DNA of 44,728 nucleotides from Escherichia coli (GCF_003334315.1 NZ_QOWR01000039.1), one strand, 5' to 3'; shown: positions 7,385 to 44,728, numbered from the stretch's first letter. The notes: generated by a model from the sequence alone, not told the origin. Numbers and translations are program-made.

Positions 7385-7389
7385 TCATC

Positions 7390-10417: not shown

Positions 10418-10446
10418 TCTGATTTAAATCAATTAATCAATGCAAG

Positions 10447-29001: not shown

Positions 29002-29015
29002 TCAATGGAGGCGTC

Positions 29016-29489: not shown

Positions 29490-29686
29490 TTTATCTCAGG
29501 GCGGTGTGTTAACGCGATGACCACTCTTTTTTTTGAAAGCGAAAAGAGTAAGATGCGCCTTTCAATTTTTTCGCTCCTGCCGGGAAATTACACTGTTCCC
29601 GGTTTGTCCGTCGGATAATTCAGAGGCGCGCCTTCTGGCCGACAGATGAGTTATGAGCGCTTTTAATCTCATTACGGAGTTTCTGC

Positions 29687-30745
29687 GTGCGTGCCGATAA
29701 GTCATTAAGCCCGTTTGAAATCCGGGTATACCGCCATTACCGCATTGTGCATGGTACTCGGGTCGCGCTGGCATTCCTGCTCACTTTTCTCATTATCCGC
29801 CTGTTTACTATCCCGGAAAGCACCTGGCCGCTGGTCACCATGGTGGTGATTATGGGGCCAATCTCGTTCTGGGGGAACGTTGTCCCTCGCGCATTCGAAC
29901 GTATTGGCGGTACGATGTTGGGGTCGATTTTAGGTCTTATCGCTCTGCAACTGGAGTTAATCTCGTTACCGCTGATGTTAGTCTGGTGCGCGGCGGCTAT
30001 GTTTCTTTGCGGTTGGCTGGCGCTGGGCAAGAAACCGTATCAAGGTTTATTGATTGGGGTGACGCTGGCAATTGTTGTTGGTTCCCCGACAGGTGAAATT
30101 AATACGGCGTTATGGCGAAGCGGCGATGTGATCCTCGGCTCTTTACTGGCAATGTTGTTTACCGGTATCTGGCCACAACGGGCGTTCATCCACTGGCGCA
30201 TTCAACTGGCAAAAAGTCTGACCGAGTATAATCGGGTCTATCAATCTGCATTCTCACCGAACTTACTCGAACGCCCGCGTCTGGAAAGCCATCTACAAAA
30301 ACTCCTGACCGATGCCGTGAAAATGCGTGGGCTGATTGCGCCCGCCAGCAAAGAAACCCGTATTCCAAAATCGATATATGAAGGTATCCAGACCATTAAT
30401 CGCAATCTGGTTTGTATGCTGGAGTTGCAAATCAATGCATACTGGGCCACGCGCCCCAGCCATTTCGTGTTATTGAACGCGCAAAAACTTCGTGATACCC
30501 AGCATATGATGCAGCAAATACTGCTGAGCCTTGTTCATGCGCTGTACGAAGGTAATCCGCAGCCGGTTTTTGCCAATACGGAAAAATTGAACGATGCTGT
30601 GGAAGAGCTGCGTCAGTTGCTGAATAACCACCATGACCTGAAGGTTGTGGAAACACCAATCTATGGTTATGTGTGGCTGAACATGGAAACGGCACATCAG
30701 CTTGAGTTGCTATCGAATCTGATTTGCCGGGCCTTGCGCAAATAA
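29687..30745 (+). CDS. yeeA: inner-membrane FUSC-like protein YeeA
   Basis: MRADKSLSPFEIRVYRHYRIVHGTRVALAFLL.. matches YeeA (352 aa), with a GTG start. Confidence 0.9.
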   Translation: MRADKSLSPFEIRVYRHYRIVHGTRVALAFLLTFLIIRLFTIPESTWPLVTMVVIMGPISFWGNVVPRAFERIGGTMLGSILGLIALQLELISLPLMLVWCAAAMFLCGWLALGKKPYQGLLIGVTLAIVVGSPTGEINTALWRSGDVILGSLLAMLFTGIWPQRAFIHWRIQLAKSLTEYNRVYQSAFSPNLLERPRLESHLQKLLTDAVKMRGLIAPASKETRIPKSIYEGIQTINRNLVCMLELQINAYWATRPSHFVLLNAQKLRDTQHMMQQILLSLVHALYEGNPQPVFANTEKLNDAVEELRQLLNNHHDLKVVETPIYGYVWLNMETAHQLELLSNLICRALRK

Positions 30746-30916
30746 TTCCTGAACTTCAGAATCATCTTGCTGCTGCTTCGATTCAGCAAGGATAAAGGGT
30801 ATGATAGTGAAAAGGGATAAAAGCATTGTCATCTGCGGCAGCTATGAGTAATGTTGGCCCTAACGAATAGCGGTTGCTTAAACGAATCCGACTCTCACAT
30901 TATCAGGGGTATAAAA

Positions 30917-31246
30917 ATGGAAACTACCAAGCCTTCATTCCAGGACGTACTGGAATTTGTTCGTCTGTTCCGTCGTAAGAACAAACTGCAACGTGAAATT
31001 CAGGACGTTGAGAAAAAGATCCGTGACAACCAGAAGCGCGTCCTGTTGCTGGACAACCTGAGCGATTACATCAAGCCAGGGATGAGCGTTGAAGCAATCC
31101 AGGGCATCATCGCCAGCATGAAAGGTGACTATGAAGATCGCGTTGACGATTACATCATCAAAAATGCCGAGCTCTCCAAAGAACGCCGCGATATCTCCAA
31201 AAAGCTGAAAGCTATGGGCGAAATGAAAAACGGCGAAGCGAAGTAA
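30917..31246 (+). CDS. yeeX: UPF0265 protein YeeX
   Basis: [39 protein letters not shown].. matches YeeX (109 aa) from the ATG at 30917. Confidence 0.93.
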
Positions 31247-31346
31247 TTCCCGTTTTATTCAATGAGGGTTGCCCGGCAACCCTCATTGCTCATTGATTCT
31301 TATCTGTGTATCACCGTCATCATTCTCATCTGAGAACCAATCGAAA

Positions 31347-31703
31347 TTAACAACAGCCTTCTTCTGTATGCAGCAAGGCAAAAAGTTCTGTAACTCCATT
31401 GTTATTAACTGCACTGGTTACTAACACGTTGTGCGCTCCAGCTTCCCGTAACCAACTTTTCACCAAAGATATTTGTTCCATGCTGGCTAAATCTGCTTTG
31501 GTTACTACTCCAATGACCGGGTGATTCATGGCCCGGTAGGGCGTTTTTACCTCTAATTCCTGCTTCAGCGCTGAGATTCCTGCTTGTTGCCGGAAAAGCA
31601 GGCACCTGCCGTCTGAACGGTATCGATCCGGAAGCGTATCTGCGCCATATTCTGAGCATACTGCCGGAATGGCCCTCCAACCGTGTTGACGAACTCCTGC
31701 CAT
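31347..31703 (-). pseudogene. yoeF: yoeF-like ORF: a C-terminal fragment of an EutP/PduV-type GTPase fused to sequence antisense to an IS66 remnant
   Basis: The C-terminal part ..HPVIGVVTKADLASMEQISLVKSWLREAGAHNVLVTSAVNNNGVTELF.. resembles the C-terminus of EutP/PduV. The first ~37 codons are simply the antisense of the IS66 transposase fragment. The position next to yeeX matches K-12 yoeF. Confidence 0.6.
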
Positions 31704-31759
31704 GGAACGTAGTTCTCACCAATAAATAAGCGTCAATACGGTGCTCCGTTGACGCTTAC
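31598..31759 (+). mobile_element. IS66-family remnant: last ~43 codons of the transposase plus the terminal inverted repeat
   Basis: The frame ending at the TAA (31727-31729) reads ..GTCRLNGIDPEAYLRHILSILPEWPSNRVDELLPWNVVLTNK*, a typical IS66 TnpC C-terminus. The sequence then ends ..CGCTTAC at 31753-31759, and IS66-family ends are GTAAGCG/CGCTTAC. The start coordinate is approximate. Confidence 0.7.
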
Positions 31760-31956
31760 TTTAATCCGTTTTCTGAGCTTAGATTTTTCTGTTCCTACCC
31801 AGACCGTGGATTTGGAATTCATTTTTTGTCAGGTCAATGCTAATCGTTAAAACGGCCATAACGCACCTCCACTGGAAGGTTTATCAGTAATATCCTACCG
31901 TTGCTTCATGGTCGGGGCGTCCATTCCATTATTATCGGTTTTCCTTTCTGTTTATA

Positions 31957-31988
31957 AATGAAAACGCCAGCTGTATTCAGGCTGGCGT
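31957..31988 (-). terminator. putative terminator of the cbeA-cbtA-yeeW transcription unit
   Basis: On the minus strand, ACGCCAGC-ctgaataca-GCTGGCGT is followed by TTTTCATTT. Confidence 0.5.
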
Positions 31989-32143
31989 CAGGGGAAATGA
32001 AGCCTGTTGAGTGAGATTCACCGGTTCTGGTGCAGAAGCTGCAGATGGCGCAGGGTAAGGACATCTTCTCTTGCCTGCTTAATACAGGACAACAGTGCTG
32101 TTTCTGTGGTTAATGGCACTATACCCTGCATCACTGCATTGTC

Positions 32144-32338
32144 TTACAGCAACTGGTGAGGGCTGGCATAAGTTGCCGGTGTTTCGGTAGAGTCACGGTC
32201 ATCCACCACGCGGAGTGAATAACCTTTTTCAGCGGCCTTATTAATCAGTTCAGTGATATTAACACCATCAATGTCAACGGCAATGTGCCCCATATCCAGC
32301 GCCTGTACGTTAACGCTGTCGGCTTCCAGTGTCATCAT
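32144..32338 (-). CDS. yeeW: CP4-44-type small protein YeeW
   Basis: MMTLEADSVNVQALDMGHIAVDIDGVNITELINKAAEKGYSLRVVDDRDSTETPATYASPHQLL is near-identical to K-12 YeeW (64 aa). Confidence 0.85.
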   Translation of the reverse strand: MMTLEADSVNVQALDMGHIAVDIDGVNITELINKAAEKGYSLRVVDDRDSTETPATYASPHQLL

Positions 32339-32708
32339 TTCGCCTCCGGATACTTACCCAGGGTAATGTTATTTACCGTTCTGTAATTGTCGCGGGTCAT
32401 CAGGCCGGTCGCCCTGCGAGCCCGGAGGATATCGATGCTGTTTATTAACTGAGAGCGGGTACAGGCGCTGAATCCCGGCTGGTCGGTAGCACCAGCGCGT
32501 ATTTTTCCACGAGAAAGTTCACCGCATCACACAGTGAAATGCCTGCCTCAATATGCTGCTCAATCACACGTTCATCGGCAAAAGGTGTGTCATTCAGTGT
32601 GAGGCCATAGTGCTGGTCCAGCAGTCGGGACAGCAGTATCTGCCAGATTTCAACAGGAGACGGGCGAGAACTGGTCGCCTGCCCGGGTAATACAGGTAAT
32701 GTTTTCAT
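32335..32708 (-). pseudogene. cbtA: cytoskeleton-binding toxin CbtA (YeeV), inactivated by a 1-nt deletion
   Basis: The first 73 aa ([73 protein letters not shown]) match CbtA, after which the frame breaks (..[14 protein letters not shown]). Inserting one base near 32488-32490 restores [51 protein letters not shown], whose stop overlaps the yeeW ATG. Confidence 0.85.
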
Positions 32709-32796
32709 ACTGAAGATTTTCCTGATATGCAGATATAAAAATGGAAAAGTGGCGTGGTGAAAACACCAGGCCGTAGCAGAAGGCTATTCTGGAGAG

Positions 32797-33165
32797 TTAA
32801 TTTTTCATTTCGGGCGTCGGATAAACAGCCAGATAAACGTAACCACAACTGCTGAGGGTATCGGCTTTGCAGGTCAGCCCTTTTGCATACAGCGTGACGG
32901 TATGCTGATGGCGGGGATTCAGTTCACCGCTGGTGAGCATGAGTTCCAGTTGTTTCATCAGCAGCGGAAAGGCCTGGTCCAGGTGGTACGCATCTGCATC
33001 GCTGAACAGGCCTCTGATACCGGCGCGGTCGGCAAGGTAATGCAACCGGTTACCCTCCTGCACCAGACGTGCCCCGAAACAGGGCGTCACGGTGCAGGGC
33101 AGCCCCCACCAGGGGCGGTCGTGATTGTCGTCGGGAAGTGTTGTCCCGGGGAGTGTGTCTGACAC
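32797..33165 (-). CDS. cbeA: antitoxin CbeA (YeeU)
   Basis: MSDTLPGTTLPDDNHDRPWWGLPCTVTPCFGARLVQEGNRLHYLADRAG.. matches CbeA (122 aa). Confidence 0.93.
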   Translation of the reverse strand: MSDTLPGTTLPDDNHDRPWWGLPCTVTPCFGARLVQEGNRLHYLADRAGIRGLFSDADAYHLDQAFPLLMKQLELMLTSGELNPRHQHTVTLYAKGLTCKADTLSSCGYVYLAVYPTPEMKN

Positions 33166-33238
33166 GATAAAATCCTTACAGAAAATCGGCTAAGAATGGT
33201 CCGGTAGTGGCGATAATTCTGCTCATCAGAATTCCCAC

Positions 33239-33460
33239 TCAGTTCAGGGTGACGCTCATCAGCCGGACATACGGACCAAAACTGTCCTTACGGCGTTCAG
33301 CAAACACGGCCAGCACACCGGGAATATCCTGCACTTCACGACCGGTATACGCTTCAGCACTGCCGTGCCAGCGGTATTTACCGGTACAGAACGGAAAAAG
33401 ACGGGATGTCGGATGTTGTTGGTGAATACGCATGGCTTCACCACGGGTGATAATTTTCAT
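33239..33460 (-). CDS. yeeT: DUF987 protein YeeT
   Basis: MKIITRGEAMRIHQQHPTSRLFPFCTGKYRWHGSAEAYTGREVQDIPG.. matches YeeT (73 aa). Confidence 0.9.
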   Translation of the reverse strand: MKIITRGEAMRIHQQHPTSRLFPFCTGKYRWHGSAEAYTGREVQDIPGVLAVFAERRKDSFGPYVRLMSVTLN

Positions 33461-33522
33461 AATGGGATACCTCTGAAGACAGAAGATAAAAGTGAAAACA
33501 GGTGTGATGTGGTTGTGAAGGG

Positions 33523-33999
33523 TTAAAGCAGACCATGTTCGGCAAAGGAGAAAACCTGGTTGCCACCGACTATCAGATGGTCCGGCACCCGGATATCCAC
33601 CAGGCCCAGTGCCTGTACCAGACGTTCCGTGATAAGGCGGTCTGCCTTACTGGGTGTGACTTCACCGGAGGGGTGATTGTGTGCCAGCACCACGGCAGCG
33701 GCATTGTGGTACAGGGCGCGTTTAATCACTTCCCGGGGATGGACTTCCGTGCGGTTGATGGTGCCGGTAAAGAGGGTTTCACCGGCAATCAGTTGATTCT
33801 GGTTATTCAGATACAGCACCCGGAATTCTTCACGCTCCAGTCCCGCCATGTTCAGAATCAGCCATTCCCGTGCTGCACGGGTGGAGGTGAAGGCCACGCC
33901 GGGTTCATGAAGATGGCGGTCCAGGGTTTTCAGGGCCCGTTGAATGAGGCTGCGCTCGCCGGGCGTCATCTCTCCGGGCAGAAAGGAAAGTTGTTGCAT
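33523..33999 (-). CDS. yeeS: RadC-like JAB-domain protein YeeS
   Basis: MQQLSFLPGEMTPGERSLIQRALKTLD..VLAHNHPSGEVTPSKAD.. has the JAMM motif HxHPSG. The ATG at 33999 is preceded by GGAGAG; the ORF-track start at 34014 has no SD. Confidence 0.88.
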   Translation of the reverse strand: MQQLSFLPGEMTPGERSLIQRALKTLDRHLHEPGVAFTSTRAAREWLILNMAGLEREEFRVLYLNNQNQLIAGETLFTGTINRTEVHPREVIKRALYHNAAAVVLAHNHPSGEVTPSKADRLITERLVQALGLVDIRVPDHLIVGGNQVFSFAEHGLL

Positions 34000-34014
34000 T
34001 GTGCTTCTCTCCAT

Positions 34015-34494
34015 TCAGTCGATGATGCGCATAATGGCGCTGCATTCCGGATGCTGCAGGGCGTAATCCCGCAACCGGTAATAATGGACCGTCATGGCAT
34101 AATTCTCCGTACGACAGGCATGATGACTGTACGTCATCAGACAGGCGGCAATACCGGCGGCTTCCGGGCTCATTTCTGCGCGGTTACCGTTCATGGCATT
34201 GAACAGTACCCATGTTTCGTCATCATCGTCATCCGGTTCGGGTGCCATAAATGCCCCGCCGTTGTTCAGGGTGTACAGATTCCAGATACCACCGCAGTAG
34301 TCTTCGCACAGACGGTCCATCCAGCCGAAGACACGGGGCTCCAGGGTCACCCACTGTGGAATGAGGCCAAAATGCTGCGGCCAGAAGCTGATGCGCTGTT
34401 CATCAGGGACGAGGCTGGCAACCAACTGAGGCGGATTATTCTCTGGTGTTGTAGCTGAATAAATTGTGGGGGTATTCTGAGAAACGGTTTTCAT
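34015..34494 (-). CDS. antirestriction protein, KlcA/ArdB family (YfjX/YafX-like)
   Basis: ..RISFWPQHFGLIPQWVTLEPRVFGWMDRLCEDYCGGIWNLYTLNNGGAFMAPE.. is typical of the YfjX/YafX antirestriction family. It occupies the usual island position upstream of the radC-like gene. Confidence 0.8.
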   Translation of the reverse strand: MKTVSQNTPTIYSATTPENNPPQLVASLVPDEQRISFWPQHFGLIPQWVTLEPRVFGWMDRLCEDYCGGIWNLYTLNNGGAFMAPEPDDDDDETWVLFNAMNGNRAEMSPEAAGIAACLMTYSHHACRTENYAMTVHYYRLRDYALQHPECSAIMRIID

Positions 34495-34575
34495 GAGATA
34501 ACTCCTTAAATAACAAATAAATGTGTGTTTTTCAGGAACGAAAGCTGAATGATTCCCTCACTCAGGGAAACGGCA

Positions 34576-35397
34576 TCAGCGCAGGCTCTCCAGCATCGTT
34601 TCTGCCATCACCCACAATGCGCGATTGAGCTTAATGTCGGTATCAATGCTGTGAATGGCCCGGGTATGGATACGTTTTCCTTTTGCACTGCGACCGGAAA
34701 TCCCGCCTTTCAGCATATTCTCCTGGATGGTCTGATATGCGCTCCACAGGTCCTTACCGTAATCCTCCCGGCGTCGCGGCGTCAGAATGTCGGCGGTGGT
34801 GACGGGCTGATGTTCGTCACCATAACGGTAAGTCAGTGCCGCCTGTGCCAGCGCCTGGCGTGCCGGTGGCGGCAGGACCAGCGATTGCATGGCATCACGC
34901 TTCTCCTCTATCCGGTCAAACACGCCCACCACCTCGTAAGCCCCTTCAATGACTCTGTCCACCACATTTCCCCGGTGCGGAACACGCACTTCCCCCAGAG
35001 ACTGACCACAGACGCAGCCGTTCTGGCAGACGAACCTGAAGTAACCCGGCAGCATCTGGTAGCTGGAGGTACCGTCATGAGAGTTGAGCAGAATAATTTC
35101 AGGGACATGTTCTCCGTTTATCTCTCCGGCCCGCCGCAGACGCAGCATGTGTTTGGTATATTCCCGGCGGCTCTGGTCGCGCACACGGGTCTGGCAGGCG
35201 AAGAACGGCTGAAAGCCTTCCCGCTGCAGATTTTCCAGGACGGTAATGGTGGGAATGTACGCATACCGTTCACTGCGGGAGGTGTGCCGGTCTTCCCCAA
35301 AAATACTGGGTACATGGCGTATCAGTTCTTCATGTGTCAGCGGACGGTCACGGCGTATCTGGTTTGCAGCATAACCAAAACGACTGGCTAATCGCAT
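34576..35397 (-). CDS. DUF932 (UPF0380) protein, YafZ/YfjQ-like
   Basis: MRLASRFGYAANQIRRDRPLTHEELIRHVPSIFGEDRHTSRSERYAYIPT.. matches the YafZ/YfjQ family and is 273 aa, the same length as those proteins. Confidence 0.85.
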   Translation of the reverse strand: MRLASRFGYAANQIRRDRPLTHEELIRHVPSIFGEDRHTSRSERYAYIPTITVLENLQREGFQPFFACQTRVRDQSRREYTKHMLRLRRAGEINGEHVPEIILLNSHDGTSSYQMLPGYFRFVCQNGCVCGQSLGEVRVPHRGNVVDRVIEGAYEVVGVFDRIEEKRDAMQSLVLPPPARQALAQAALTYRYGDEHQPVTTADILTPRRREDYGKDLWSAYQTIQENMLKGGISGRSAKGKRIHTRAIHSIDTDIKLNRALWVMAETMLESLR

Positions 35398-35442
35398 ACT
35401 TTGCTCCTTATCGGTGGTTAAGATTTACTGGTGCAATAAATG

Positions 35443-35474
35443 AAAAAAGCCGCGTCTCCCGGAGAAGACGCGGC
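35443..35474 (-). terminator. rho-independent terminator after the secreted-protein gene pair
   Basis: On the minus strand, GCCGCGTCT-tctccggg-AGACGCGGC is followed by TTTTTTC. Confidence 0.8.
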
Positions 35475-35617
35475 CTGACGGGTGAAATGAATAAGGTTTA
35501 TTGTCTGAGAGGCCTTTCACTGGCGAGCCACGCATTAAGCGGCTTTCCGGTAACAATGGCTGGGGCTGTATTTACCTTTGATATTAATAATGTGCAGAGA
35601 AACGCATGGTTTACTCC

Positions 35618-36028
35618 TTAGATTTTAAGTTTGTCCTGGGCTACAACGACAGGTTTTCCGGATGTGTCGATGACTCCTACCGTCGGTACGCCATTTTTGA
35701 TTTCGAAGAACGGTTTGTTGCTACCTGAGCACAGTTGATTGTCCCCGTATTCAATCATTTGTGCTTTCCCGGTTTTCAGGTTAACTACCGAGACAGTGTA
35801 GTCGTAGCACCAGGCACCACCACGTTCAAGCACGAAAACATAGCTGTTATCTTTATAGTTGAACTGATTCTTTGTCTGGCAATTCATACCGTCAATTTCG
35901 GTACAGGAAAACGCTTCTGTAGTATTAACGTATTTGATGTTATTTGGCAGTTTTACTTGTTTCGCAGTAGCGAAGACAGAGAACAGAATAGTTACAGCAA
36001 CGAGTAAAGTTTTGATAAAAGTTTTCAT
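35618..36028 (-). CDS. hypothetical secreted protein (136 aa, cleavable signal peptide, five Cys in the mature part)
   Basis: The N-terminus MKTFIKTLLVAVTILFSVFATA-KQ looks like a Sec signal. I recognise no family. The gene is AT-richer than the flanking island genes. Confidence 0.6.
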   Translation of the reverse strand: MKTFIKTLLVAVTILFSVFATAKQVKLPNNIKYVNTTEAFSCTEIDGMNCQTKNQFNYKDNSYVFVLERGGAWCYDYTVSVVNLKTGKAQMIEYGDNQLCSGSNKPFFEIKNGVPTVGVIDTSGKPVVVAQDKLKI

Positions 36029-36043
36029 GATAGACTCCTTAAA

Positions 36044-36532
36044 TTAGTTAAACGCAGCTACGTAGTTTTTCACCAGATACGCGAATTCATGCACGCCAAT
36101 TTCACCGAACCAAACCAGGTAGGCCGGGTCATCTAAACCAAAGTAACGGTAGCCAACAACTTCATGGGTTTTTGGGTTATAGAGTGTTACGATAAAGTCC
36201 CAGCCGCAGGTATTGGCTTTGCAACCGTCGCCCTGGAGCCAGACTGTATCGTTAATGTTTACTGGCGTGATACCTCCACCAGGGCCATCCATATAGCCGC
36301 CTTTACCGAACATGCCGCTCAGTCCGACCGGTTTTAATGCTTTGTCGATAGCGGCTTTGTAGGTAGCGTCACCTTCGTACAACTCGTACGTTGATGGACA
36401 CGCTCCAGGTTGTTCAGCCCAGGCTTCCGGGTTACAACTAAGTGCTTGTTTTACGGTAGCCGCTTCTGCGTTAAAGTTAAAGCCCGTGAACAGAACCGCC
36501 AGAAATAACATAAGGGTATGTAAACGTTTCAT
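36044..36532 (-). CDS. secreted protein with Ivy-like (inhibitor of vertebrate lysozyme) signature
   Basis: From the ATG at 36532 the protein reads MKRLHTLMLFLAVLFTGFNFNAEA-ATVKQ.. (signal peptide). The core ..VWLQGDGCKANTCGWDFIVTLYNP.. parallels the Ivy loop ..QVMSACKPHDCGSQRIAVMWSE.. (C-K-x3-C-G followed by a beta strand). The ORF track extends to 36835, but that extension crosses the upstream terminator. An alternative start at 36727 (MKLPVKLLMSLISLVSVIARA) is possible. Confidence 0.5.
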   Translation of the reverse strand: MKRLHTLMLFLAVLFTGFNFNAEAATVKQALSCNPEAWAEQPGACPSTYELYEGDATYKAAIDKALKPVGLSGMFGKGGYMDGPGGGITPVNINDTVWLQGDGCKANTCGWDFIVTLYNPKTHEVVGYRYFGLDDPAYLVWFGEIGVHEFAYLVKNYVAAFN

Positions 36533-36821
36533 TGTAAATATTCTTCCGTTGTAAATGGCGCTGGAAAATTTCTCATCAGTGAAACCTTCCGGAAGTTTCC
36601 CCCCCTTGTATGATGTATATCGCCAGTATTTTATTTCATCCCGGCTGTAATTTTTATATTCCCCGGCACGTGCAATAACGCTGACCAGAGATATAAGGCT
36701 CATTAATAACTTTACAGGTAATTTCATAATTAAATTTCCAGTGAGTGAATTGACAGGTGAGGGGTAAAACTTTCTCTCAGGTAATATATATCTGAAAATA
36801 TTTTCAATAACACCAGACAGG

Positions 36822-36847
36822 AAAAACACCACCACAGGCGGTGGCGT
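36822..36847 (-). terminator. putative terminator of the dynamin-like/patatin operon
   Basis: On the minus strand, ACGCCACC-gcctgt-GGTGGTGT (one G-U pair) is followed by TTTTC. It lies 15 nt after the patatin stop. Confidence 0.6.
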
Positions 36848-36862
36848 TTCTTTGGGGCGTCT

Positions 36863-37933
36863 TTATTTAATCCGGGCCATCGCGTTTCTCAGTGCCAAAT
36901 CTGCCTCTTCCGTTATATCCAGGCTTTTCTGCAATACCGCCTCTGACCGGGTCAGTGCCTGACGTGCTGCCAAGGGGTTCCGGATATGCTCCATCGTCAG
37001 CATCGTGTCTTCATAGCCCTGCTGACGCCAGATGTCGGTATGTGCCGATGTAAAACTGAGCAGACCGCCACTTTTGCCTTCTTCCCCTGTGTGTTTCAGC
37101 CTTTTCCGGGGACGGATTTCAAGGATTGTGGTGTCCGGAAAAGCCCGGCGATCCCATAAAGAACCGTCACTCAGATGCGTCACAATCACCATATTGCATC
37201 CGGCATCGACCAGAGGCGTTACAGGGGTATTTCCCTGCATATTTCGCCATCCTCCCATCCCACCATCACCGAACATTGTCCCCTGAACCTCACGGGGATG
37301 GAACAACAGGGGCAGTGCGGCTGACGCAAGCAGAGCCTCTTTCTGCTGTCCGCGGGGCAGACTCTGGATATGCTGAAAAACGGCGTTTTTCGTGGTTCCG
37401 GCACCCAGTTCAGCACGAATGCAGTCAATAATATCCTGTATGCCCCCTTCTGTGGGGTACAGCGACACATACAGCGGTAGCCCGTCTGCCAGAGCATCAG
37501 TATCAAGATAATGATCCATCAGCGCTGTCAGAGGCTCATCTGACAACAGCGGCTGAGCCATCGGATTGTCGAAGCCGTTGATTATCGATATATGGCGAAG
37601 AAGTATCGTAAGCAGTGCTCCTGCACGTCCGGGGATCTGGCAGAGGTTCATTGCCTGGAACAATTTTTTCAGCAATGAAAAGTAAACCGATCGGTTTACC
37701 GACAGCACCTGATTATTCCCCAGATGATCCCAGAGCGCCTCCAGGCGTACGGCAGCTTCTGACAGATCGGGAGAGGCCGCGATAATGGCACCATTGAATG
37801 CGCCAATGCTGGCCCCTGAAACCATGCTGATCTGTGTACCACACTCTGCCAGTGCCTTAACCACTCCCGCCTGATAAGCGCCCACCGCCCCGCCACCGGA
37901 CAGCACCAGCCCCGTTTTCATTTCTGTACTCAT
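36863..37933 (-). CDS. patatin-like phospholipase
   Basis: It has the oxyanion-hole motif LSGGGAVGAYQAG (aa 11-23), the nucleophile elbow G-A-S-I-G (Ser42) and the catalytic D-G-G (Asp223). The ATG overlaps the upstream stop (ATGA). Confidence 0.88.
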   Translation of the reverse strand: MSTEMKTGLVLSGGGAVGAYQAGVVKALAECGTQISMVSGASIGAFNGAIIAASPDLSEAAVRLEALWDHLGNNQVLSVNRSVYFSLLKKLFQAMNLCQIPGRAGALLTILLRHISIINGFDNPMAQPLLSDEPLTALMDHYLDTDALADGLPLYVSLYPTEGGIQDIIDCIRAELGAGTTKNAVFQHIQSLPRGQQKEALLASAALPLLFHPREVQGTMFGDGGMGGWRNMQGNTPVTPLVDAGCNMVIVTHLSDGSLWDRRAFPDTTILEIRPRKRLKHTGEEGKSGGLLSFTSAHTDIWRQQGYEDTMLTMEHIRNPLAARQALTRSEAVLQKSLDITEEADLALRNAMARIK

Positions 37934-38835
37934 GCAGCCCCCTTCTGAAATATTTCATCGACCATACTTTCAGAGAGGCGTTCTGCAGAGCAGAGGCGAG
38001 GCATGCGAACCGGTAAGTGTTCTGCAGCCTGCGTGGTTGACCAGATCACCGGATGCTGCTCTTCACTGCACCAGTCTCCCAGCCAGTTAATCGCGTCATG
38101 CCACTCGTTATCTGCCTGCTCCCGGCCCTGACCACCAAGCCAGTCCAGAGTGTTCAGACGCACGGTTGCACTACCGCCACTCTCCTGTGCCATCTGCGTT
38201 AATGCTTTATGTCTGAGAATATCCAGTAGCTGGTTAACCTGGCCTGTTTCGCTCTGACGTATCACATCACCAAACGCGCCCCAGCGAAGCTCTTCAAGTG
38301 CCACATAACAACGTCCGGCAGGGGAAAATGACGCATATCGCCCGGCGCTCCACCATGAGAATATCTGCTCAAGATGTAACTGCGCCCGCTGAACCTGGTC
38401 AACACGGTGGAGTTTTTCTTCAAGATGATTCAGTTTATGGTGAACCTGATCGGCCAGGGTGAGTAACTGCTCCCGCGTATCTGCGGAATAATGCGCCAGC
38501 CTGGCTGTATCACTGACCAGTGAACTGACCCTGTCGTTTACCCGGGTAATCGCGTAGTTTGTGGTGGCAAGTGACGTTGTCATCTCCGTCAGCCAGCGCA
38601 GGGACGCCTCAACGCCCTGTGCAAGCGACGCATTGATGGCATTCTGCCGTGCAGCGCCTTCGCCGGTCAGCCCCTCTTTTAAACGCCGGAAGAACGTGCG
38701 CTCTCCGGCCGTGCGGATATGCTCCTGTGCAACATCGATTCCGTTTGCGAAATCAACCACAAATTTTTCAGGAAGACAGGTGAGTACCTGACATACCCGG
38801 TTATCAGCAATTTGTTGAATAAATGGTGAAGTCAC
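37930..38835 (-). CDS. YjcZ/RdcB-like protein (partner of the dynamin-like GTPase)
   Basis: The 301-aa protein has a central coiled-coil-like segment (..REQLLTLADQVHHKLNHLEEKLHRVDQVQRAQLHLEQ..). Its size, position immediately after a YjdA-like GTPase and motifs such as ..GEGAARQNAINASL.. and ..ALEELRWGAFGD.. recall E. coli YjcZ (RdcB). The GTG start overlaps the upstream stop (GTGA). Confidence 0.6.
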   Translation of the reverse strand: MTSPFIQQIADNRVCQVLTCLPEKFVVDFANGIDVAQEHIRTAGERTFFRRLKEGLTGEGAARQNAINASLAQGVEASLRWLTEMTTSLATTNYAITRVNDRVSSLVSDTARLAHYSADTREQLLTLADQVHHKLNHLEEKLHRVDQVQRAQLHLEQIFSWWSAGRYASFSPAGRCYVALEELRWGAFGDVIRQSETGQVNQLLDILRHKALTQMAQESGGSATVRLNTLDWLGGQGREQADNEWHDAINWLGDWCSEEQHPVIWSTTQAAEHLPVRMPRLCSAERLSESMVDEIFQKGAA

Positions 38836-41228
38836 AGCATTGTCTCCAGCTCTTCCCTCAGCGCCTTACTGTCAGTAATGAGCTCAGGAACCCTTTCATT
38901 TAATGCCTGAAGTCGCCCGGTAAGTCGTTCCTGCGCCTGCTGATCGCGTTTATGATCTTCAGAGCTCTGAATCAGCGTGTTACGCAGTTGTTCAACTTTC
39001 TCCCTGAATGCGCAGAAAAAGGCATCGATTTCCTGGCGGACGGGCTGGTTAATATCCTGCTCAATGGATGCCTGCAGCTCCCCGAAATATGCCCGGGTCA
39101 GTGACATAACTTCCTCTCTGACCTTGTTGATATTGATCACGCTGCGACTCACATCCTCGTCATAGTTTTCCCAGCCCAGGTCACTGGTGCCAAACCATCG
39201 ACAAACGGTTCCCCATACGCCACTCTGCCGACGGCGACGGGTGACGGTCTCCGTTCTTTCCTCCATAAGCGCACTCAGATTTATTTTTACCGCGAGCCGG
39301 GTCTGTAACTGGCTGACTGCCGGAAAACTGATTTTTACGGTAAAGCCCTCATCCTCCAGGCGGGCATTGATGCGACCGGCAATGTTTTCTGTGGCGTACA
39401 GGGCCGTGCCACGAAAACCTGTTTCAATCCCGCTGACGATTTTCTCCAGCTCAGGCCGGAACTGTGCTTCAGCCTCACGGTGCAGGCTGGTCACGGTCGA
39501 TTCGATTTGCGTCATCAGTTCAAGGGCTTCCCTGCGATCACTGAATTTTATTTCGGGGCTGTCCGGGGCAAAATCTCGTTTCCTGTAATCCTCCCGGCCC
39601 TGGTTGTTGATACCGGACCATTGAGAAATTTTCCCCCATAATCCGGACTGAGACCTTCGTTGTTCTGCGTCTTCTTCCTCCAGCATTTGCTGTTCTTTGC
39701 GTTTACCGCTTCTGAAATAGTCATTCAGCTCCTCTTCCAGTGAGGTGCAGACCCCCGTCAGTAATTCCCGGGTTTTAGTATCGATCTCCTCCATGGCCAT
39801 TCTGACATCAGTGGTCATCTGCTCCTGACAGTCCGCGATTTCCCGGATATCCGCAAGCAGGCTGGTGATATGCGACTGCAGTGACTGAATGCTTTGCTGT
39901 AGCCCCTGATGGCGTAACAACAGGTATTCACTGATATTTTCTGCATTCTGCATCAGTTTTGCGGCGGCAGAGTCAACCGCCAGTGCCGCAGCTCTGGAAT
40001 GTGAGCTCTGTATGACTTCCGTTATCAGTTGATCGATAAGTGAGCCTTCCCACAGGTCTGTCGCCCCTTCAGTTGCCAGTTCACTGTCTTTACAGACGTA
40101 TTCTTTTTTCATGCAACCGAAGGCACCTCTGATAAAATCATCGACCCAGGCTTCATCAACAGGAAGGGTTCCGTTTTTCCGTAACTCATGAAGCGCACGG
40201 TTAGCCAGGTATGCCTGGCGTGAGGATCCGGGATAAACGCGGGAGGCGGGCAGCACATCGCTGTTCAGCATTGCCGGAACTTTCTGGCGTACGGCATCTG
40301 CCCCATCGCCATTGCGGTCTTTCTCATCAAATTTATTGACCAGTACAAACAGGCGGCCGGCTGATACGTCAGCAATGGCATTAAGCTCTTTACGGACGTC
40401 TTCATCCGCTTTTGAGTTCATCTGGGTGTAATCCATCACAGCCAGAACCGCAGAGGCTTTCTGCAGTTGATCCCGCATCATCACTTCCATCTGCGGTTGT
40501 CCGGCCTCATTAGGGCCGGGGGTATCCAGCAGTGTGAGTGTTCCCTGGCATGCATCCATCCCCACCAGATGGCTGAATTCCACGTCGATCACCGGCAGTT
40601 TCTGCACTTCTGCGTATTCATCAAAAGGAAATTCAGTCCCCATTGCCGCAGCAAGACGAACCAGATCGTTTAACGATGCCAGTCCGGTAAAGATTTCCTC
40701 CTCCCCGTGGTATTCATTTTTGAGCCAGCCATCATCCGTCAGAATATCCAGCAGTTCGCGGGTATCCCCGGTTTGCTGCAGGGTCTGTGCGACCTGCTGT
40801 CCTGCCGGGGTGGCGAGTTTTTCCTGCAGTGTGATTAATAAATTGCGGACAGGCTGAATATGTTCCAGATGGAGAACCGGCTCAGTTTTTCCGGGAACGT
40901 GGCGGATGAGCGTCGGTACAGAGGTCATGGGGCGGTTACGGTTAGGCAGAATTTCCTGCCCCACAATGGCGTTGATGGTGGTTGATTTGCCTGCTTTCAT
41001 CGTGCCGACAACAGCCAGCACCATCTCCCTGCGGGCGGTTTTGATTTGTTCGCCCTCCAGCTCCTCAATTCTTTTCAGTGCTTTCTGTTTATCAAAAAGC
41101 AGTCTGTTTTCGTTCTTACTGTCAGATAACACATCTGGCTCCTCAACCATTTGCCGGAGCAGATTAATGTTCAGTTGCAAAAGTCGGTCGGCTTCATCAC
41201 AAAGCAGGGCGATGTTCTTTTCGTGCAT
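38832..41228 (-). CDS. bacterial dynamin-like GTPase, CrfC/YjdA(RdcA) paralogue (798 aa)
   Basis: G1 is GTMKAGKST (aa 75-83; nt 40983-41006), G3 is DTPGPNE (aa 235-241) and G4 is NKFD (aa 298-301). The stretch MVLAVVGTMKAGKSTTINAIVGQEILPNRNRPMTSVPTLIRH is almost identical in pattern to E. coli YjdA/CrfC. The C-terminal half is long and helical. An AGGAAGG SD lies 7 nt before the ATG. Confidence 0.88.
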   Translation of the reverse strand: MHEKNIALLCDEADRLLQLNINLLRQMVEEPDVLSDSKNENRLLFDKQKALKRIEELEGEQIKTARREMVLAVVGTMKAGKSTTINAIVGQEILPNRNRPMTSVPTLIRHVPGKTEPVLHLEHIQPVRNLLITLQEKLATPAGQQVAQTLQQTGDTRELLDILTDDGWLKNEYHGEEEIFTGLASLNDLVRLAAAMGTEFPFDEYAEVQKLPVIDVEFSHLVGMDACQGTLTLLDTPGPNEAGQPQMEVMMRDQLQKASAVLAVMDYTQMNSKADEDVRKELNAIADVSAGRLFVLVNKFDEKDRNGDGADAVRQKVPAMLNSDVLPASRVYPGSSRQAYLANRALHELRKNGTLPVDEAWVDDFIRGAFGCMKKEYVCKDSELATEGATDLWEGSLIDQLITEVIQSSHSRAAALAVDSAAAKLMQNAENISEYLLLRHQGLQQSIQSLQSHITSLLADIREIADCQEQMTTDVRMAMEEIDTKTRELLTGVCTSLEEELNDYFRSGKRKEQQMLEEEDAEQRRSQSGLWGKISQWSGINNQGREDYRKRDFAPDSPEIKFSDRREALELMTQIESTVTSLHREAEAQFRPELEKIVSGIETGFRGTALYATENIAGRINARLEDEGFTVKISFPAVSQLQTRLAVKINLSALMEERTETVTRRRRQSGVWGTVCRWFGTSDLGWENYDEDVSRSVININKVREEVMSLTRAYFGELQASIEQDINQPVRQEIDAFFCAFREKVEQLRNTLIQSSEDHKRDQQAQERLTGRLQALNERVPELITDSKALREELETML

Positions 41229-41289
41229 TATTTAACCTTCCTAAGACGCATTTTCATGACAACCACGGAGGAGGTCATTTACTACAAAC

Positions 41290-41336
41290 GATCGTTTATA
41301 ACGATCGATATGATAGTAACGATCGATGTATTCTAT
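41290..41336 (-). promoter_or_regulatory. three clustered GATC (Dam) sites with an OxyR-like tetrad pattern; agn43-type phase-variation switch
   Basis: GATC occurs at 41290-41293, 41303-41306 and 41321-41324, each as CGATCG. On the minus strand the tetrads ATAG-n7-CGAT-n7-ATCA-n7-CGTT (41336 down to 41300) fit the 4-7-4-7-4-7-4 spacing of the OxyR consensus. The region lies between the predicted -10 and the dynamin-like gene, in the same place relative to yeeP as the flu regulatory region in K-12. Confidence 0.65.
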
Positions 41337-41358
41337 TAACTTGAGAAACACAACGCAA
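41330..41358 (-). promoter_or_regulatory. sigma70-type promoter of the dynamin-like operon
   Basis: The minus strand has TTGCGT (41358-41353), a 17-nt spacer and TAGAAT (41335-41330), about 100 nt upstream of the ATG at 41228. Confidence 0.6.
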
Positions 41359-41445
41359 GGGGACAACCCGGGTATGGCTGCGTTTGCATAGTGTTTTCAT
41401 GGAGTTAAAAATCTGTAACAACAGCCTGGTACATCACCACCGGGT

Positions 41446-42318
41446 TCAGAAGAAAATCCAGTTCCATACCGCGCGGGCAACAGAGACCACCGAGTCACGG
41501 ACGGCGCGCAGAACCGTGCGTGCAACAGAGGCAATGCAGACGCTCTCCGCCGTGTCAAATATCCGGTCCACCGCACCGGTAAACTGTTCACGGGCCTGAG
41601 ACCGGACAGACTCCGTGCGCAGCTCGTCCTGCAGGCGGGTCATCAGGGGACTGGCGGCATGGTCGGGAAGTGCTGTCATGAGCGCACTGACCAGCGTATC
41701 CAGTTCCCAGCCGGTGCGGGCCGATACGGCAACAACCCGATGTACGGGCCGGAACAGACGGAATACCGCCTCCGTTTTTTCGCGAATGTTCTGTGCCTGT
41801 GCGGGAGAAGGCTGAATACCGGCCATATCCCATTCATGGCAGGGCTCCGTTTTATCGGCCTGCATCACCACAAACAGTACCCGCTGATGTCCCCGGTGCA
41901 GGATGTGTCGCCAGAAATACTCATCCACAGACAGGGCACGGTCATCGGCTTTAATCAGCCACAGTACCAGGTCCAGTTCGAGCAGAATGTCACGGTACAG
42001 GGCTTCATACTCTGCATCCCTGTCCCGGCTCTCGCCCACCCCGGGCAGGTCAGTGATAACCATGCTGTGACCATGGCCATTCAGACGGAAGCGCTGCACT
42101 TCCCGGGGGCCGGCGTGAACATCACTGACCGGGGTGACCTCCCCCTGAAACAGCGCATTACAGAGTGAGGATTTACCGGCCCCGCTTTTACCCATAATGC
42201 CAGGCACGGGTTCGTGACTGGTGAGTTTGCGCAGATGTTCCAGGATGTGACGGGAAAGTGAGTAAGGCAGGGAGGAGAGCGGTTTTTCAATTGCCTCAAT
42301 GGCATCAGACGGATTCAT
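41446..42318 (-). CDS. yeeP: island-associated GTPase of the YeeP/YkfA/YfjP family
   Basis: MNPSDAIEAIEKPLSSLPYSLSRHILEHLRKLTSHEPVPGIMGKSGAGKSSLCNALF.. has a P-loop, DLPG and a divergent G4 (QADK in place of NKxD). It matches YkfA/YeeP from the ATG at 42318; the ORF-track start at 42357 adds 13 codons. Confidence 0.88.
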   Translation of the reverse strand: MNPSDAIEAIEKPLSSLPYSLSRHILEHLRKLTSHEPVPGIMGKSGAGKSSLCNALFQGEVTPVSDVHAGPREVQRFRLNGHGHSMVITDLPGVGESRDRDAEYEALYRDILLELDLVLWLIKADDRALSVDEYFWRHILHRGHQRVLFVVMQADKTEPCHEWDMAGIQPSPAQAQNIREKTEAVFRLFRPVHRVVAVSARTGWELDTLVSALMTALPDHAASPLMTRLQDELRTESVRSQAREQFTGAVDRIFDTAESVCIASVARTVLRAVRDSVVSVARAVWNWIFF

Positions 42319-42401
42319 ACATGTATTCCCGGTGAAAAAAGACAAAACCCCGCGCACCGGAAAGGTGGCGGGGGATTCACGGAAATAATATCTGTCTGAA
42401 A

Positions 42402-43565
42402 TTATCTGGAATCGATTTGGCTGTTCTGCCTGGTTGCCACCAAATCATGGTACGCCTGCTCAATCATTTCATTCAGCAGTTTTTTTGGGAGGACACCACG
42501 ACTTCGGGCAATACTTTCAAGCTGTTTGTGGATTTTTCCGGACAGTTTCAGAGGGACGGAACCATCAGCACGTTCATCACGCCTTTTTTGTTGCTCCCGG
42601 GCACTTTTCAGCTCATCAAGAAGAATCGCTTTATGCTGAATCCTGGGGGCCTGGAAGGAGACCTGCGTAAACTTCGCTCTGTTCCGTCTGGGATTACTTT
42701 CCAGTAAAAACTGTACCTGTTGCTCATTCCAGCCCTCCCAGTTATCAAACGTGGCGCAGGCAAACCAGTATTTCTGCTCCGGGGTAAGGGGATTCAGCGG
42801 GGTTCCCACACACCGGACCTGCATGGCGTTCCATAACCAGTCACACTGTTCACTGTCCCTGCTGTCCACCCACGAAAAGGGGGAGGGGTAATCATTGTTT
42901 ATGCTGGCCCATTCAGAGAATACTGAGTTGATAATCGTCCTCGTAGCCTCTGGTCCGGATTTCAGCAGGTAACTGGAGCAGAACCATATAATTTCACGGT
43001 AGATTTTATCCGGATGCACGGTGCGCATCGGCTTTTCTCTGGGACCGGCAATCTTCGGTTGCGATGGAAACCCCGTGGCAAACCGCAGATGTTCCGGGGG
43101 CATTCCTGAACGTTTTTCAGGAATGGGTGTGAGTCCTGCGTTTCTGGTCTTTTCCGCTTGTCCGGTATTGTCTCCGGCCGGAGTGTTGTCGGGAGTATCT
43201 TCCGGAGGCGAGGTGTTTTCATTAGTTGGGGGAACAACAGCAGAACTGTCCATCTCCGGAATGGGTTGAGGGGCATAATCACTGTGGTAGCCAGGGGAAA
43301 GCGTTAAGTCCCGAAGGGTGACATCAGGTTCCGGGCAGTGAGTGCCACCGGGAGTGAACGGGAGTTGTTGCTTTTGGGAGAAAAATGTATTGTGAATGCG
43401 GGTATACAGCTGGAACAGAAAAAAATAAGATGCCCGTGGTTCTTTTTTTAACCACTGTGTATATTCCTCTATGGCACCGAGCTGTTGTTTGTGCCGTTTT
43501 ACAGCATCGATATACGGACAGCTGGTGCAGATATCATCCAGTTCCTTTCCCACAATACACCTCAC
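42402..43565 (-). CDS. hypothetical island protein (about 383-387 aa) with a Pro/Thr-rich central linker; start codon uncertain (GTG at 43565 or 43553)
   Basis: This is a long ORF in the same orientation as the island genes. There is no ATG in the first ~100 codons, and the GTG at 43553 is preceded by AGGTGAGG. The central segment APQPIPEMDSSAVVPPTNENTSPPEDTPDNTPAGDNTGQAEK is low-complexity. I recognise no family. Confidence 0.55.
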   Translation of the reverse strand: MRCIVGKELDDICTSCPYIDAVKRHKQQLGAIEEYTQWLKKEPRASYFFLFQLYTRIHNTFFSQKQQLPFTPGGTHCPEPDVTLRDLTLSPGYHSDYAPQPIPEMDSSAVVPPTNENTSPPEDTPDNTPAGDNTGQAEKTRNAGLTPIPEKRSGMPPEHLRFATGFPSQPKIAGPREKPMRTVHPDKIYREIIWFCSSYLLKSGPEATRTIINSVFSEWASINNDYPSPFSWVDSRDSEQCDWLWNAMQVRCVGTPLNPLTPEQKYWFACATFDNWEGWNEQQVQFLLESNPRRNRAKFTQVSFQAPRIQHKAILLDELKSAREQQKRRDERADGSVPLKLSGKIHKQLESIARSRGVLPKKLLNEMIEQAYHDLVATRQNSQIDSR

Positions 43566-44651
43566 CTGCTTTTCTCACATTTGCAGATTTTAAAAAAGCA
43601 AACAAAAACCTCCGTACATGATGTACAGAACAATCTACCAGGTAGTGGCGTCAGAAAACCCCCGGGCCGCCTGCACTTTCCGGAATGCGCCGGTTATGAA
43701 AAACCGGAAATTCAGTCTCTGTTGTAAGATGTACCCTCTGATACTACGTTTTCTCTGTGTATTTAACTCACTGTATTTATTGTCTTTTTAAGCTTGACTG
43801 ATATTCTCCGGTCATAGTGTGCCGGATATACATCCCGTAAACTTCTCATTTTTATATAAAAATACCTGCACTCTCTTCAGCGCATCTGTCTCCTTTAAGT
43901 AAAAAATGTTTTCACGTATTGCTGTAAATTCATTTTAAATCAGTATATTACCTTGATATTGCTGTCTCCTGGTTTGATGCGTAATCGTTCTGCCTTTCTG
44001 GATGATTCTGGTGCTTCCGGGTGCATTCTCCTCTGCACATGCAACAGTTCGTCATCGCCACGCTCCCAAAAAGCATATAAAAACGAATCGAATTTGATAT
44101 TTTTTTCAATCGTTTTTCATAGGAATTTCGTAGGGTATTCTCCGCTATAACCTCCATATTTGCTGCCTTTTTCTCCATAAATCGTATGCAATATAGCCTG
44201 TCTGTCAAGACCTCTTCTCTGCTGTTGAGGAGACGATCTCATTTTTGGTCTTTTCCGGGAGAGAGGCTGTCAGATGAGCGAGCCGGATATACTGTCAGAG
44301 GTACACCCCGTAGCAGACCTGTGCTCCCATTTCCGCGATCCGGAACCAACAACACCCTACGGTTAATACCATTTGAAGCGTCAGGTACTGCAGGAAGTTC
44401 CCCCCTGCGCGGACATCGGTTCCTGCCGACATCTCACAATACGGCCAGACTGTCATGCAGTAACACCCGCATGCGGTCTGCGGTTTTAAGCGCACTCTCC
44501 CGTTTTCAGTGCACCGATAATGCGTCATAGTAAGTCTGGGGGAAGTTACGGAATGCCTGTTAAGTGGTGCCGTGGGTGGAGACAGCTTACTTTTCTACAG
44601 CAACTGCAGTCATTCAGGATGATCAGGAGATATTCTGTCAATGTCACGATC

Positions 44652-44728
44652 TAGACTGGCCCCCTGAATCTCCAGACAGTTGGTATCACTTAAGTTAGTG
44701 ATAGTCTTAATACTAGTTTTTAGACTAG
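44652..44728 (+). mobile_element. IS2-like (IS3 family) left end; the element continues beyond the right window edge
   Basis: TAGACTGGCCCCCTGAATCTCCAGACA...TCACTTAA..AGTGATAGTCTTAATACTAGTTTTTAGACTAG matches my memory of the IS2 left inverted repeat and leader, with a few internal differences. Confidence 0.65.

Follow-up and report, generated by a model that had tools for sequence, protein, structure and literature searches.

A 44,728-nucleotide stretch of Escherichia coli DNA (GCF_003334315.1, NZ_QOWR01000039.1; hereafter the window) contains a CP4-44-type island in which the yeeP-family GTPase gene is followed not by flu (agn43) and yeeR, as in K-12, but by an operon encoding a dynamin-family GTPase, a YjcZ/RdcB-like protein, a patatin-like phospholipase and two secreted proteins. 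The operon is immediately preceded by a putative agn43-type promoter and operator with three GATC sites, the phase-variation switch of a gene that is itself absent. This retained switch heads the operon and probably makes it flip ON and OFF between cell lineages. The account as a whole, comprising an exchangeable unit, a fused switch and agn43-like bistable control of the five genes, is regarded as probable. A preliminary description of the region, made from the sequence alone, had noted the similarity to the flu leader but not that the switch is retained before the new cargo. The elements concerned are the following:

41446-42318, minus strand: intact yeeP-family GTPase gene, 290 amino acids (Pfam MMR_HSR1/Dynamin_N), left anchor of the variable segment
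41330-41358, minus strand: candidate sigma-70-type promoter of the agn43/cah type (alignment to K-12 and O157)
41290-41327, minus strand: candidate agn43-type operator with three GATC sites (41324-41321, 41306-41303 and 41293-41290)
41272-41281, minus strand: fusion junction (blastn and inspection)
38832-41228, minus strand: dynamin-family GTPase, 798 amino acids (Pfam Dynamin_N)
37930-38835, minus strand: YjcZ/RdcB-like protein, 301 amino acids (Pfam YjcZ, E=4e-70)
36863-37933, minus strand: patatin-like phospholipase, 356 amino acids (Pfam Patatin)
36044-36727, minus strand: secreted protein hyp227, 227 amino acids in RefSeq (signal peptide in the translation, no Pfam family)
35618-36028, minus strand: secreted 136-amino-acid protein hyp136 (signal peptide in the translation, no Pfam family)
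35447-35550, minus strand: last ~50 nt of DUF905 and a strong intrinsic terminator, right anchor of the variable segment (homology resumes at 35550)

The 217-bp spacer between yeeP and the dynamin gene is unlike K-12 directly after the yeeP stop codon and then contains a short block of renewed similarity, TAATAGAATACATCGATCGTTACTATCATATCGATCGTTATAAACGATCG, which corresponds to the -10 element of the agn43 promoter and the three GATC sites of its OxyR/Dam operator. The similarity to the flu leader reported in the preliminary description is thus real; it covers the promoter and all three GATC sites and stops at about 41281. The promoter is composed of a -35 element TTGCGT (41358-41353), a 17-bp spacer and a -10 element TAGAAT (41335-41330), the last being identical in K-12 agn43 and in the O157 and flu-type islands and lying about 6 nt upstream of the first GATC. 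Transcription is predicted to start near 41324, on the basis of the isrC/flu 5' end of K-12. A match to the Toledano OxyR consensus (41327-41291), a site predicted by consensus match only, spans the three GATCs and agrees at 16/20 positions; this score is reached by 0/2000 shuffles, and the K-12 agn43 operator scores 14/20. GATC spacing in the window is 18 and 13 bp, vs 19 and 13 bp at agn43. The operator is the only intergenic cluster of three GATCs in the 44.7-kb window. Other triple-GATC clusters, found upstream of yeeP at several loci, lie inside coding sequence, are probably due to chance and were discarded. In six copies of the region retrieved independently of GATC, 23 of the 223 intergenic columns vary, as against 0/24 hexamer and GATC positions. 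The probability of this invariance is P=0.063 when all columns are counted and P=0.006 for the promoter-operator stretch only, a part that varies most densely and was chosen post hoc. Metagenome contigs were scanned for the switch with a pattern that required the GATCs, and the 120 loci obtained are therefore no test of GATC conservation; look-ups of patatin homologues yielded too few unbiased upstream regions for such a test.

At the junction, the upstream side shares homology with the yeeP–cah spacer of the O157 island and the downstream side with sequence found 44 nt before the dynamin start codon; ~10 nt past its last GATC, the switch gives way to the 5' untranslated region of the operon. 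In O157:H7, the tRNA-Ser island has the order yeeP–switch–cah–dynamin–RdcB–patatin–DUF932 and onward. The window aligns with it in two blocks, 42449 to 41281 (96% identity) and 41272 to 36778 (98%), between which 3123 bp of the O157 island are missing, consisting of the cah leader, cah and the 66 nt after it; the two are otherwise collinear, except for the 1.2-kb two-gene unit of secreted proteins. A short CCTxC microhomology is present at the junction. We infer that the window is a derivative of a switch–Ag43/Cah–dynamin array, formed by a single 3.1-kb microhomology deletion of the autotransporter. The autotransporter, its leader and the leader terminator are absent from the window, and Rfam (E≤1, 34000-44728) gives no match, in keeping with loss of the isrC/flu leader. 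The leaders of agn43 (L002 11440-11530) and cah (L004 7215-7372) end, just ahead of the ribosome-binding site, in a perfect hairpin and T-run, the isrC terminator. Five copies of differing strain background or locus agree at every base of the junction: the window, a B2 strain at tmaR, a serX island, E. albertii and strain MP1. This one fusion allele has reached several island loci as well as E. albertii. It was also considered that the B2 island (L046) shares the yoeA–yeeP' left flank of K-12; blastn found no such homology, and the idea was dropped.

The metagenome loci fall into two classes. The 51-nt switch (19+13) always has an Ag43-family gene next where the contig is long enough, except in two non-E. 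coli contigs, and after that gene follow YeeR–IrmA–DUF905, DUF905 alone, DUF932, or dynamin–RdcB–patatin with or without hyp227–hyp136. The 50-nt switch (18+13), seen in 34 contigs and 8 sequence variants, has the dynamin gene directly next in every case. Complete Ag43–dynamin–RdcB–patatin–hyp227–hyp136 arrays occur in contigs L106 and L141. On the simplest reading, the place behind the autotransporter can be taken either by yeeR–irmA or by the dynamin operon. A clean exchange of flu for the GTPase operon, as first supposed, does not fit: in O157 and other islands the dynamin operon takes the yeeR–irmA position downstream of Ag43/Cah.

The limits of the exchanged segment emerge from islands other than that of K-12. 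K-12 carries yeeP'–isrC–flu–yeeR–yeeS at this position, and the observation that it has flu-yeeR where the window has other genes is correct. A natural flu-bearing strain with its island at the same tmaR locus (L003) has the order yeeP–agn43–yeeR (838 amino acids)–irmA–DUF905–DUF932–antirestriction gene–yeeS, and a second example was found. A blastn comparison of the window with this island gives a homologous block from 42416 to 41443, ending 3 nt beyond the stop codon of yeeP, and a further one from 35550, within the last ~50 nt of DUF905; compared with K-12, homology restarts only at 33975. The true variable segment can accordingly be placed at 35551-41442, and the range 34015-42318 given earlier was drawn too wide. 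K-12 lacks half of yeeR, together with irmA, DUF905, DUF932 and the antirestriction gene. The deletion, of ~3.35 kb, removes the yeeR 3' half through the antirestriction gene and joins truncated yeeR to yeeS (mapped by comparing K-12, L002 14780-16755, with L003 9994-15323); the same yeeR–yeeS loss has been noted before (PMC6480617). K-12 is a decayed minority form of CP4-44 and a poor template for the island family, and the K-12-centred picture has to be corrected. The right side is closed by a terminator at 35476-35447, a hairpin of 13 pairs followed by a T-run, and the same hairpin stands behind DUF905 in flu-type, O157-type, B2, serX and E. ruysiae islands (L003, L004, L007, L046, L047). 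The flu–yeeR–irmA genes are reported to form one transcription unit (PMC6480617). Because this common terminator closes the right side, the exchanged part is the body of a single transcription unit, with conserved sequence at either end: the control region on the 5' side and the terminator. Beyond it lie three further genes:

34576-35397, minus strand: DUF932 gene (Pfam)
34015-34494, minus strand: KlcA-like antirestriction gene (Pfam)
33523-34014, minus strand: YeeS/RadC gene (Pfam)

A YeeP scan that took one genome from each species places DUF932 and the KlcA-like gene at the same position throughout Enterobacterales. Since both are present downstream of flu–yeeR–irmA–DUF905 in natural islands, they are best assigned, together with YeeS/RadC (33523-35397), to the backbone rather than to the cargo. 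Their inclusion in the replacement was mistaken, as it is K-12 that deleted them.

Prevalence was counted in 5426 complete E. coli genomes, an admittedly biased collection. A 161-nt probe over the fusion junction matches 1979/5426 genomes at 2205 places (up to 3 per genome), nearly all of them ≥95% identical. A probe requiring the chromosomal flank together with the cargo (28000-39500) matches 2149/5426, O157:H7 and O104:H4 among them; the matching probe for an intact flu–yeeR–irmA–DUF905 with flank finds 530/5426; and the operon occurs anywhere in the genome in 2711/5426. The fusion allele is thereby present in about 36-40% of complete E. coli genomes. Most other genomes have K-12-like deletion forms or empty sites at the tmaR locus. 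At this locus the window form holds a plurality, and among the island-bearing genomes of this collection it is the majority; flu-yeeR is a sizeable minority, of which K-12 represents a decayed version. The cargo is further present in sister islands at serX, in E. albertii and, judged by gene neighbours, probably at pheU in MP1.

Across these islands, the same flanks (hyp383–yeeP on one side, the 3' end of DUF905 and DUF932 on the other) enclose either Ag43–YeeR–IrmA or the dynamin cargo. Outside Escherichia, the interval between yeeP and DUF932 is empty in some genomes; in others it holds a WYL/HTH regulator, several small secreted proteins, a YfjS/YafY lipoprotein, IrmA and DUF905, or a different 3.7-kb set with a YagK/YfjJ gene. 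Homologues of both secreted genes of the window lie in the same interval in Klebsiella. Two metagenome contigs of a non-E. coli enterobacterium (YeeP ~60% identical) carry an agn43-type switch with three GATCs, behind which come two small secreted proteins and then DUF932 but no autotransporter, so that a small secreted-protein pair can be counted as a third type of cargo behind such a switch. In these contigs (L101 1365-2547 and L150, reverse strand, 10271-11452), one of the secreted proteins resembles the C-terminal half of a Klebsiella protein that has an Ivy-like N-terminal half.

These comparisons bear on the interpretation proposed in the preliminary description, in which the stretch after yeeP is a recombination hot spot and flu-yeeR was replaced by a seven-gene cargo including DUF932 and KlcA. 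Part of it stands: the interval is variable, its alternative contents lie between the same flanks, other contents were found in other Enterobacterales, and the cargo recurs in islands at other loci and in other species. The remainder fares less well. The E. coli repertoire is small and not open-ended, the slot holding only a handful of recurring modules; DUF932 and KlcA belong to the backbone and K-12 is a deletion derivative; and the coexistence of the dynamin operon with Ag43/Cah makes it an alternative to yeeR-irmA and not to flu. The direction of replacement is also affected: with 2149/5426 genomes vs 530 with intact flu, no state of the locus is commoner than the window form, so the objection that it might itself be the majority form applies in part. 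As an overall explanation this interpretation is unlikely.

Expression data come from a 2026 RNA-seq study of E. coli MP1, in which these five genes show the strongest difference between sibling lineages; the difference is equal in both media and does not follow the lytic/lysogenic state, higher expression goes with carriage of the Kapi1 prophage, and the authors make no mention of Ag43, OxyR, Dam or phase variation (PMC12922286). In MP1, RefSeq genes 19705-19720 encode a hypothetical protein, the patatin, the RdcB-like and the dynamin-like protein, the next gene, 19725, is yeeP, and gene 19700 is taken by its position to be the 136-amino-acid gene. The same switch, fused at the same junction, is found in the 217 bp that separate yeeP from the dynamin gene. 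The differential unit thus starts at the switch and, if 19700 is the 136-amino-acid gene, stops before DUF932, as the terminator predicts. Colony-to-colony ON/OFF bias is documented for agn43 and is a known pitfall (PMC3764049). A phase state fixed differently in the two sibling lineages is the likelier explanation of the MP1 difference.

In the proposed mechanism, OxyR bound to the unmethylated GATCs would block transcription, giving the OFF state as at agn43, and Dam methylation of the three GATCs would exclude OxyR, giving the ON state. Both states would be inherited, and the five genes, from the dynamin-like to the 136-amino-acid gene, would be expressed in a sub-lineage of cells only. As the leader attenuator was lost by the fusion, the dynamin operon would respond to the switch alone. 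An Ivy-fold periplasmic protein would be co-expressed with a membrane-acting module.

Several observations weigh against this account. The -35 element matches the consensus at only 3/6 positions, and the promoter is not listed by a consensus scan. The distance from GATC-I to GATC-II is 18 bp, vs 19 bp in every Ag43-linked switch sampled. Over the whole region, the invariance of the GATCs is barely beyond expectation from recent common ancestry (P=0.063), and the choice of an autotransporter deletion over an insertion relies on parsimony and a 4-nt microhomology. The MP1 difference could be true prophage-dependent regulation, as only two colonies per strain were compared, and part of the signal of the second copy is affected by multi-mapping reads (PMC12922286). 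A literature search found no paper linking the switch to the operon, and no methylation, OxyR-binding or single-cell data for the locus.

Some of these observations would also suit a silent relic, a switch left behind by the deleted autotransporter while the operon is constitutive or uses another promoter, its conservation reflecting recent spread of the allele. The apparently single origin of the fused allele with its identical junction everywhere, the low divergence (nearly all junction matches ≥95% identical), the weak -35 and the whole-region conservation test, which is not significant, agree with this possibility. Against it, variation is concentrated in the operator spacers and never in the hexamers or GATCs (P=0.006, post hoc), the OxyR consensus is matched more closely here than at agn43 itself, and no other promoter is predicted in the 96-nt leader, the sole scan match (41339-41310) overlapping the switch. 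In addition, the all-or-none difference of five genes in MP1 begins precisely at the switch, yeeP not being part of it. A relic is consequently judged improbable. Least probable of all is an inducible anti-phage or stress module under prophage-encoded or other trans-acting factors, with GATC/OxyR sites devoid of a bistable role: it is the MP1 authors' own interpretation, up-regulation following Kapi1 carriage (PMC12922286), and it draws on the trio of Vibrio and Pseudomonas that adjoins WYL/BrxR-type regulators and BREX genes and on a distant trio in an apparent lambdoid prophage, but regulation in MP1 is the same in both media and does not track the lytic-lysogenic decision (PMC12922286), the trio of the Escherichia islands has the agn43 switch instead of a regulator gene, and no PADLOC defence model matches. 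Control by the retained switch is hence preferred to either.

The operon itself is compact, the YjcZ/RdcB-like gene overlapping both neighbours by 4 nt. The dynamin-like protein is 33% identical over its full length to K-12 RdcA/CrfC (YjdA), with a conserved P-loop, and reaches 556 bits against the NCBIfam CrfC model, vs a cut-off of 1146, which places it outside that equivalog. The RdcB-like protein is 30% identical to K-12 RdcB. By these alignments the island GTPase/YjcZ pair can be considered a full-length paralogue of core RdcA/RdcB. The patatin scores 87.4 bits (Pfam cut-off 27.7), retains the motifs GGGxxG, GxSxG and DGG (as SGGGAVG, GASIG and DGG) and is apparently an active lipase. A weak terminator-like hairpin (36827-36843, minus strand) after the patatin gene ends the three-gene module common to the O157 island, with which homology extends to 36778. 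The dynamin–YjcZ pair always has a patatin gene next, and the trio with overlapping genes also occurs in Pseudomonas, Vibrio and Pectobacterium, the three distant genera sampled. In Pseudomonas it adjoins BrxR/WYL, an integrase, a yeeP-like GTPase and RadC; in Vibrio, WYL lies upstream and BREX nearby; in Pectobacterium, the trio directly follows RadC–CbeA–CbtA–DUF4942; and in the E. coli serX island it adjoins a type I restriction-modification system. A distant dynamin–YjcZ–(IS110)–patatin trio in E. coli contig L178 (1677-7646), with a patatin 64% identical, is followed by an unrelated 160-amino-acid secreted protein; a phage antiterminator-Q gene fragment at the end of this contig points to a probable lambdoid prophage. 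No triple-GATC switch was found upstream of the dynamin gene in the distant trios of Pseudomonas, Vibrio, Pectobacterium and the prophage.

A PADLOC-DB v2 scan of ten proteins gave no real match to a defence system, only weak local ones to LeoBC (E~1e-4, P-loop) and to a CBASS-type phospholipase (E=8e-5, N-terminal motif). The operon is most likely a membrane-acting module in which the GTPase pair controls the phospholipase, and the pair may gate the lipase. It is possibly anti-phage; a defence role is plausible but unsupported by PADLOC.

The two-gene secreted unit has a guanine-plus-cytosine (GC) content of 0.43, vs 0.52-0.59 in its surroundings, in agreement with its earlier description as AT-richer. 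Most homologues of hyp227 are ~160 amino acids long and start at MKRLHTLM, equivalent to 36532 in the window, so that the product of 36044-36532 is most likely a ~160-amino-acid secreted protein, to which the RefSeq start at 36727 adds an in-frame N-terminal extension. The RefSeq 227-amino-acid version has two successive signal-peptide-like segments. An AlphaFold2 (AF2) model of the ~160-amino-acid protein has a predicted local distance difference test (pLDDT) score of 81.5, and in a Foldseek search of the PDB the top 8 matches are all Ivy (E down to 3.6e-4, probability 0.99-1.0, target-normalised template-modelling (TM) score 0.60-0.72), the next match having E>1. The protein is thus predicted to have the fold of Ivy, a lysozyme inhibitor. 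Sequence matches to Ivy are weak: the Pfam Ivy family gives no match for the window protein, and 16.9 bits for the Klebsiella homologue, below the cut-off of 21. The disulfide loop reads CKANTCG, vs CKPHDCG in Ivy, and the inhibitory His is absent. The 136-amino-acid protein contains cysteines and has no Pfam, NCBIfam or PDB sequence match; its AF2 model has a pLDDT of 63.8, and Foldseek gave no meaningful match.

The window belongs to the E. coli chromosome, as megablast of 30500-44728 finds near-identical stretches in many complete E. coli genomes. The best match is annotated his–yefM/yoeB–yeeZ–…–sbcB–dacD–sbmC–yeeA–tmaR, followed by the island on the opposite strand. In the window, the island lies on the minus strand adjoining tmaR (yeeX), and its backbone has the CP4-44 order, yeeP … DUF932–antirestriction–RadC (YeeS)–YeeT–CbeA–CbtA–YeeW. 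Every gene named in the preliminary description is upheld by Pfam. Identity is 98-99% to the flu-type island (35550 to 30500) and the K-12 island (33975 to 30500), and yeeP is 95-96% identical to that of the flu-type, K-12 and O157 islands. The window does not reach the far end of the island, the matching genome having insertion sequence (IS) elements and further island genes past position 44728. The cbtA toxin gene (32445-32708 and ~100 nt downstream) is frameshifted and is a RefSeq pseudogene in an identical strain; cbeA is intact. Upstream of yeeP, the 383-amino-acid protein hyp383 (42402-43553) has no Pfam, NCBIfam or PADLOC match; it adjoins yeeP with either cargo type in metagenome contigs, and a YfjI-family gene stands there instead in the flu-type island L003. 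Window positions 1-9000, which precede the his operon, include a long low-GC stretch (0.30-0.43) that probably represents the O-antigen/gnd region.

A wider reading is offered tentatively, as somewhat short of an even chance. The stretch after yeeP would be a portable, epigenetically bistable platform re-used for at least three unrelated cargos: Ag43/Cah adhesins, the dynamin-like/RdcB-like/patatin operon with its Ivy-fold protein, and small secreted-protein pairs in other Enterobacteriaceae. A putative membrane-acting, possibly abortive-infection, system would then be confined to heritable subpopulations in more than a third of strains, and the "prophage-induced dynamin defence" signal of MP1 would be a phase-state artefact. 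If true, this would amount to bet-hedging of a costly defence or envelope module. Should the switch function as proposed, it would extend the OxyR/Dam mechanism to a cytoplasmic/membrane enzyme system in ~2000/5426 complete genomes, including O157:H7, O104:H4 and ST131. Strains locked ON or OFF would provide a handle on the function of the uncharacterised dynamin–YjcZ–patatin trio, and comparisons of clones could show large "regulation" of the operon genes that is in fact phase state. To our knowledge, few OxyR/Dam epigenetic switches have been described (agn43, gtr, opvAB), all of them controlling surface structures.

The closest known system is the OxyR/Dam phase-variation switch of agn43 (flu) in E. 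coli K-12, reportedly described by Haagmans and van der Woude in 2000 and by Wallecha et al. in 2002. Like it, the window switch lies directly after yeeP, with a TAGAAT -10 element, three GATCs just downstream of the start and an overlapping match to the OxyR consensus. In contrast to agn43, it heads a cytoplasmic GTPase/phospholipase operon and not an autotransporter, its spacing is 18 and not 19 bp, and the ~200-nt agn43 leader with its terminator (isrC region) is deleted. The Salmonella gtr and opvAB operons are likewise horizontally acquired and under bistable control by OxyR and GATC methylation, but their GATCs and OxyR half-sites, four of each, lie upstream of the promoter and work by an activation/repression logic (PMC2909390, PMC4856963), and they share no sequence homology with the agn43-type module of the window. 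Being under OxyR/Dam control, they indicate that this type of switch can serve non-adhesin cargo. The flu–yeeR–irmA module of CP4-44/GI-pheV-type islands has the same flanks, switch and terminator and is known to be modular and recombination-prone; neither of the papers on it describes the dynamin/RdcB/patatin alternative or the switch fusion (PMC6480617, PMC11537424).

Among the cargo proteins, the nearest relatives are the core RdcA–RdcB (YjdA/CrfC–YjcZ) GTPases, which activate the diguanylate cyclase DgcE (PMC6510439, PMC13463826), acting at the membrane and sensing GTP/(p)ppGpp (PMC13463826). Both pairs have the overlapping two-gene architecture, align over their full length and conserve the GTPase motifs, but the window pair is an island-borne paralogue always accompanied by a patatin gene, which the core pair lacks. 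Dynamin-like anti-phage systems (Eleos/LeoA–LeoBC and B. subtilis DynA) similarly combine a dynamin-family GTPase with mobile islands (PMC12922286); the LeoBC match is only at the level of the P-loop, and the partners in the window are YjcZ and patatin. Ivy (PDB 1GPQ, 1XS0, 1UUZ and 4PS6) resembles the ~160-amino-acid protein in signal peptide, size, predicted fold and a disulfide-bounded C-x4-C loop, and differs from it in sequence (~20% identity) and in the inhibitory His that CKANTCG lacks. The direct placement of an agn43-type epigenetic switch at the head of a dynamin-like/RdcB-like/patatin operon appears, within the literature searched, to be new, in an arrangement that is common and from parts that are known.

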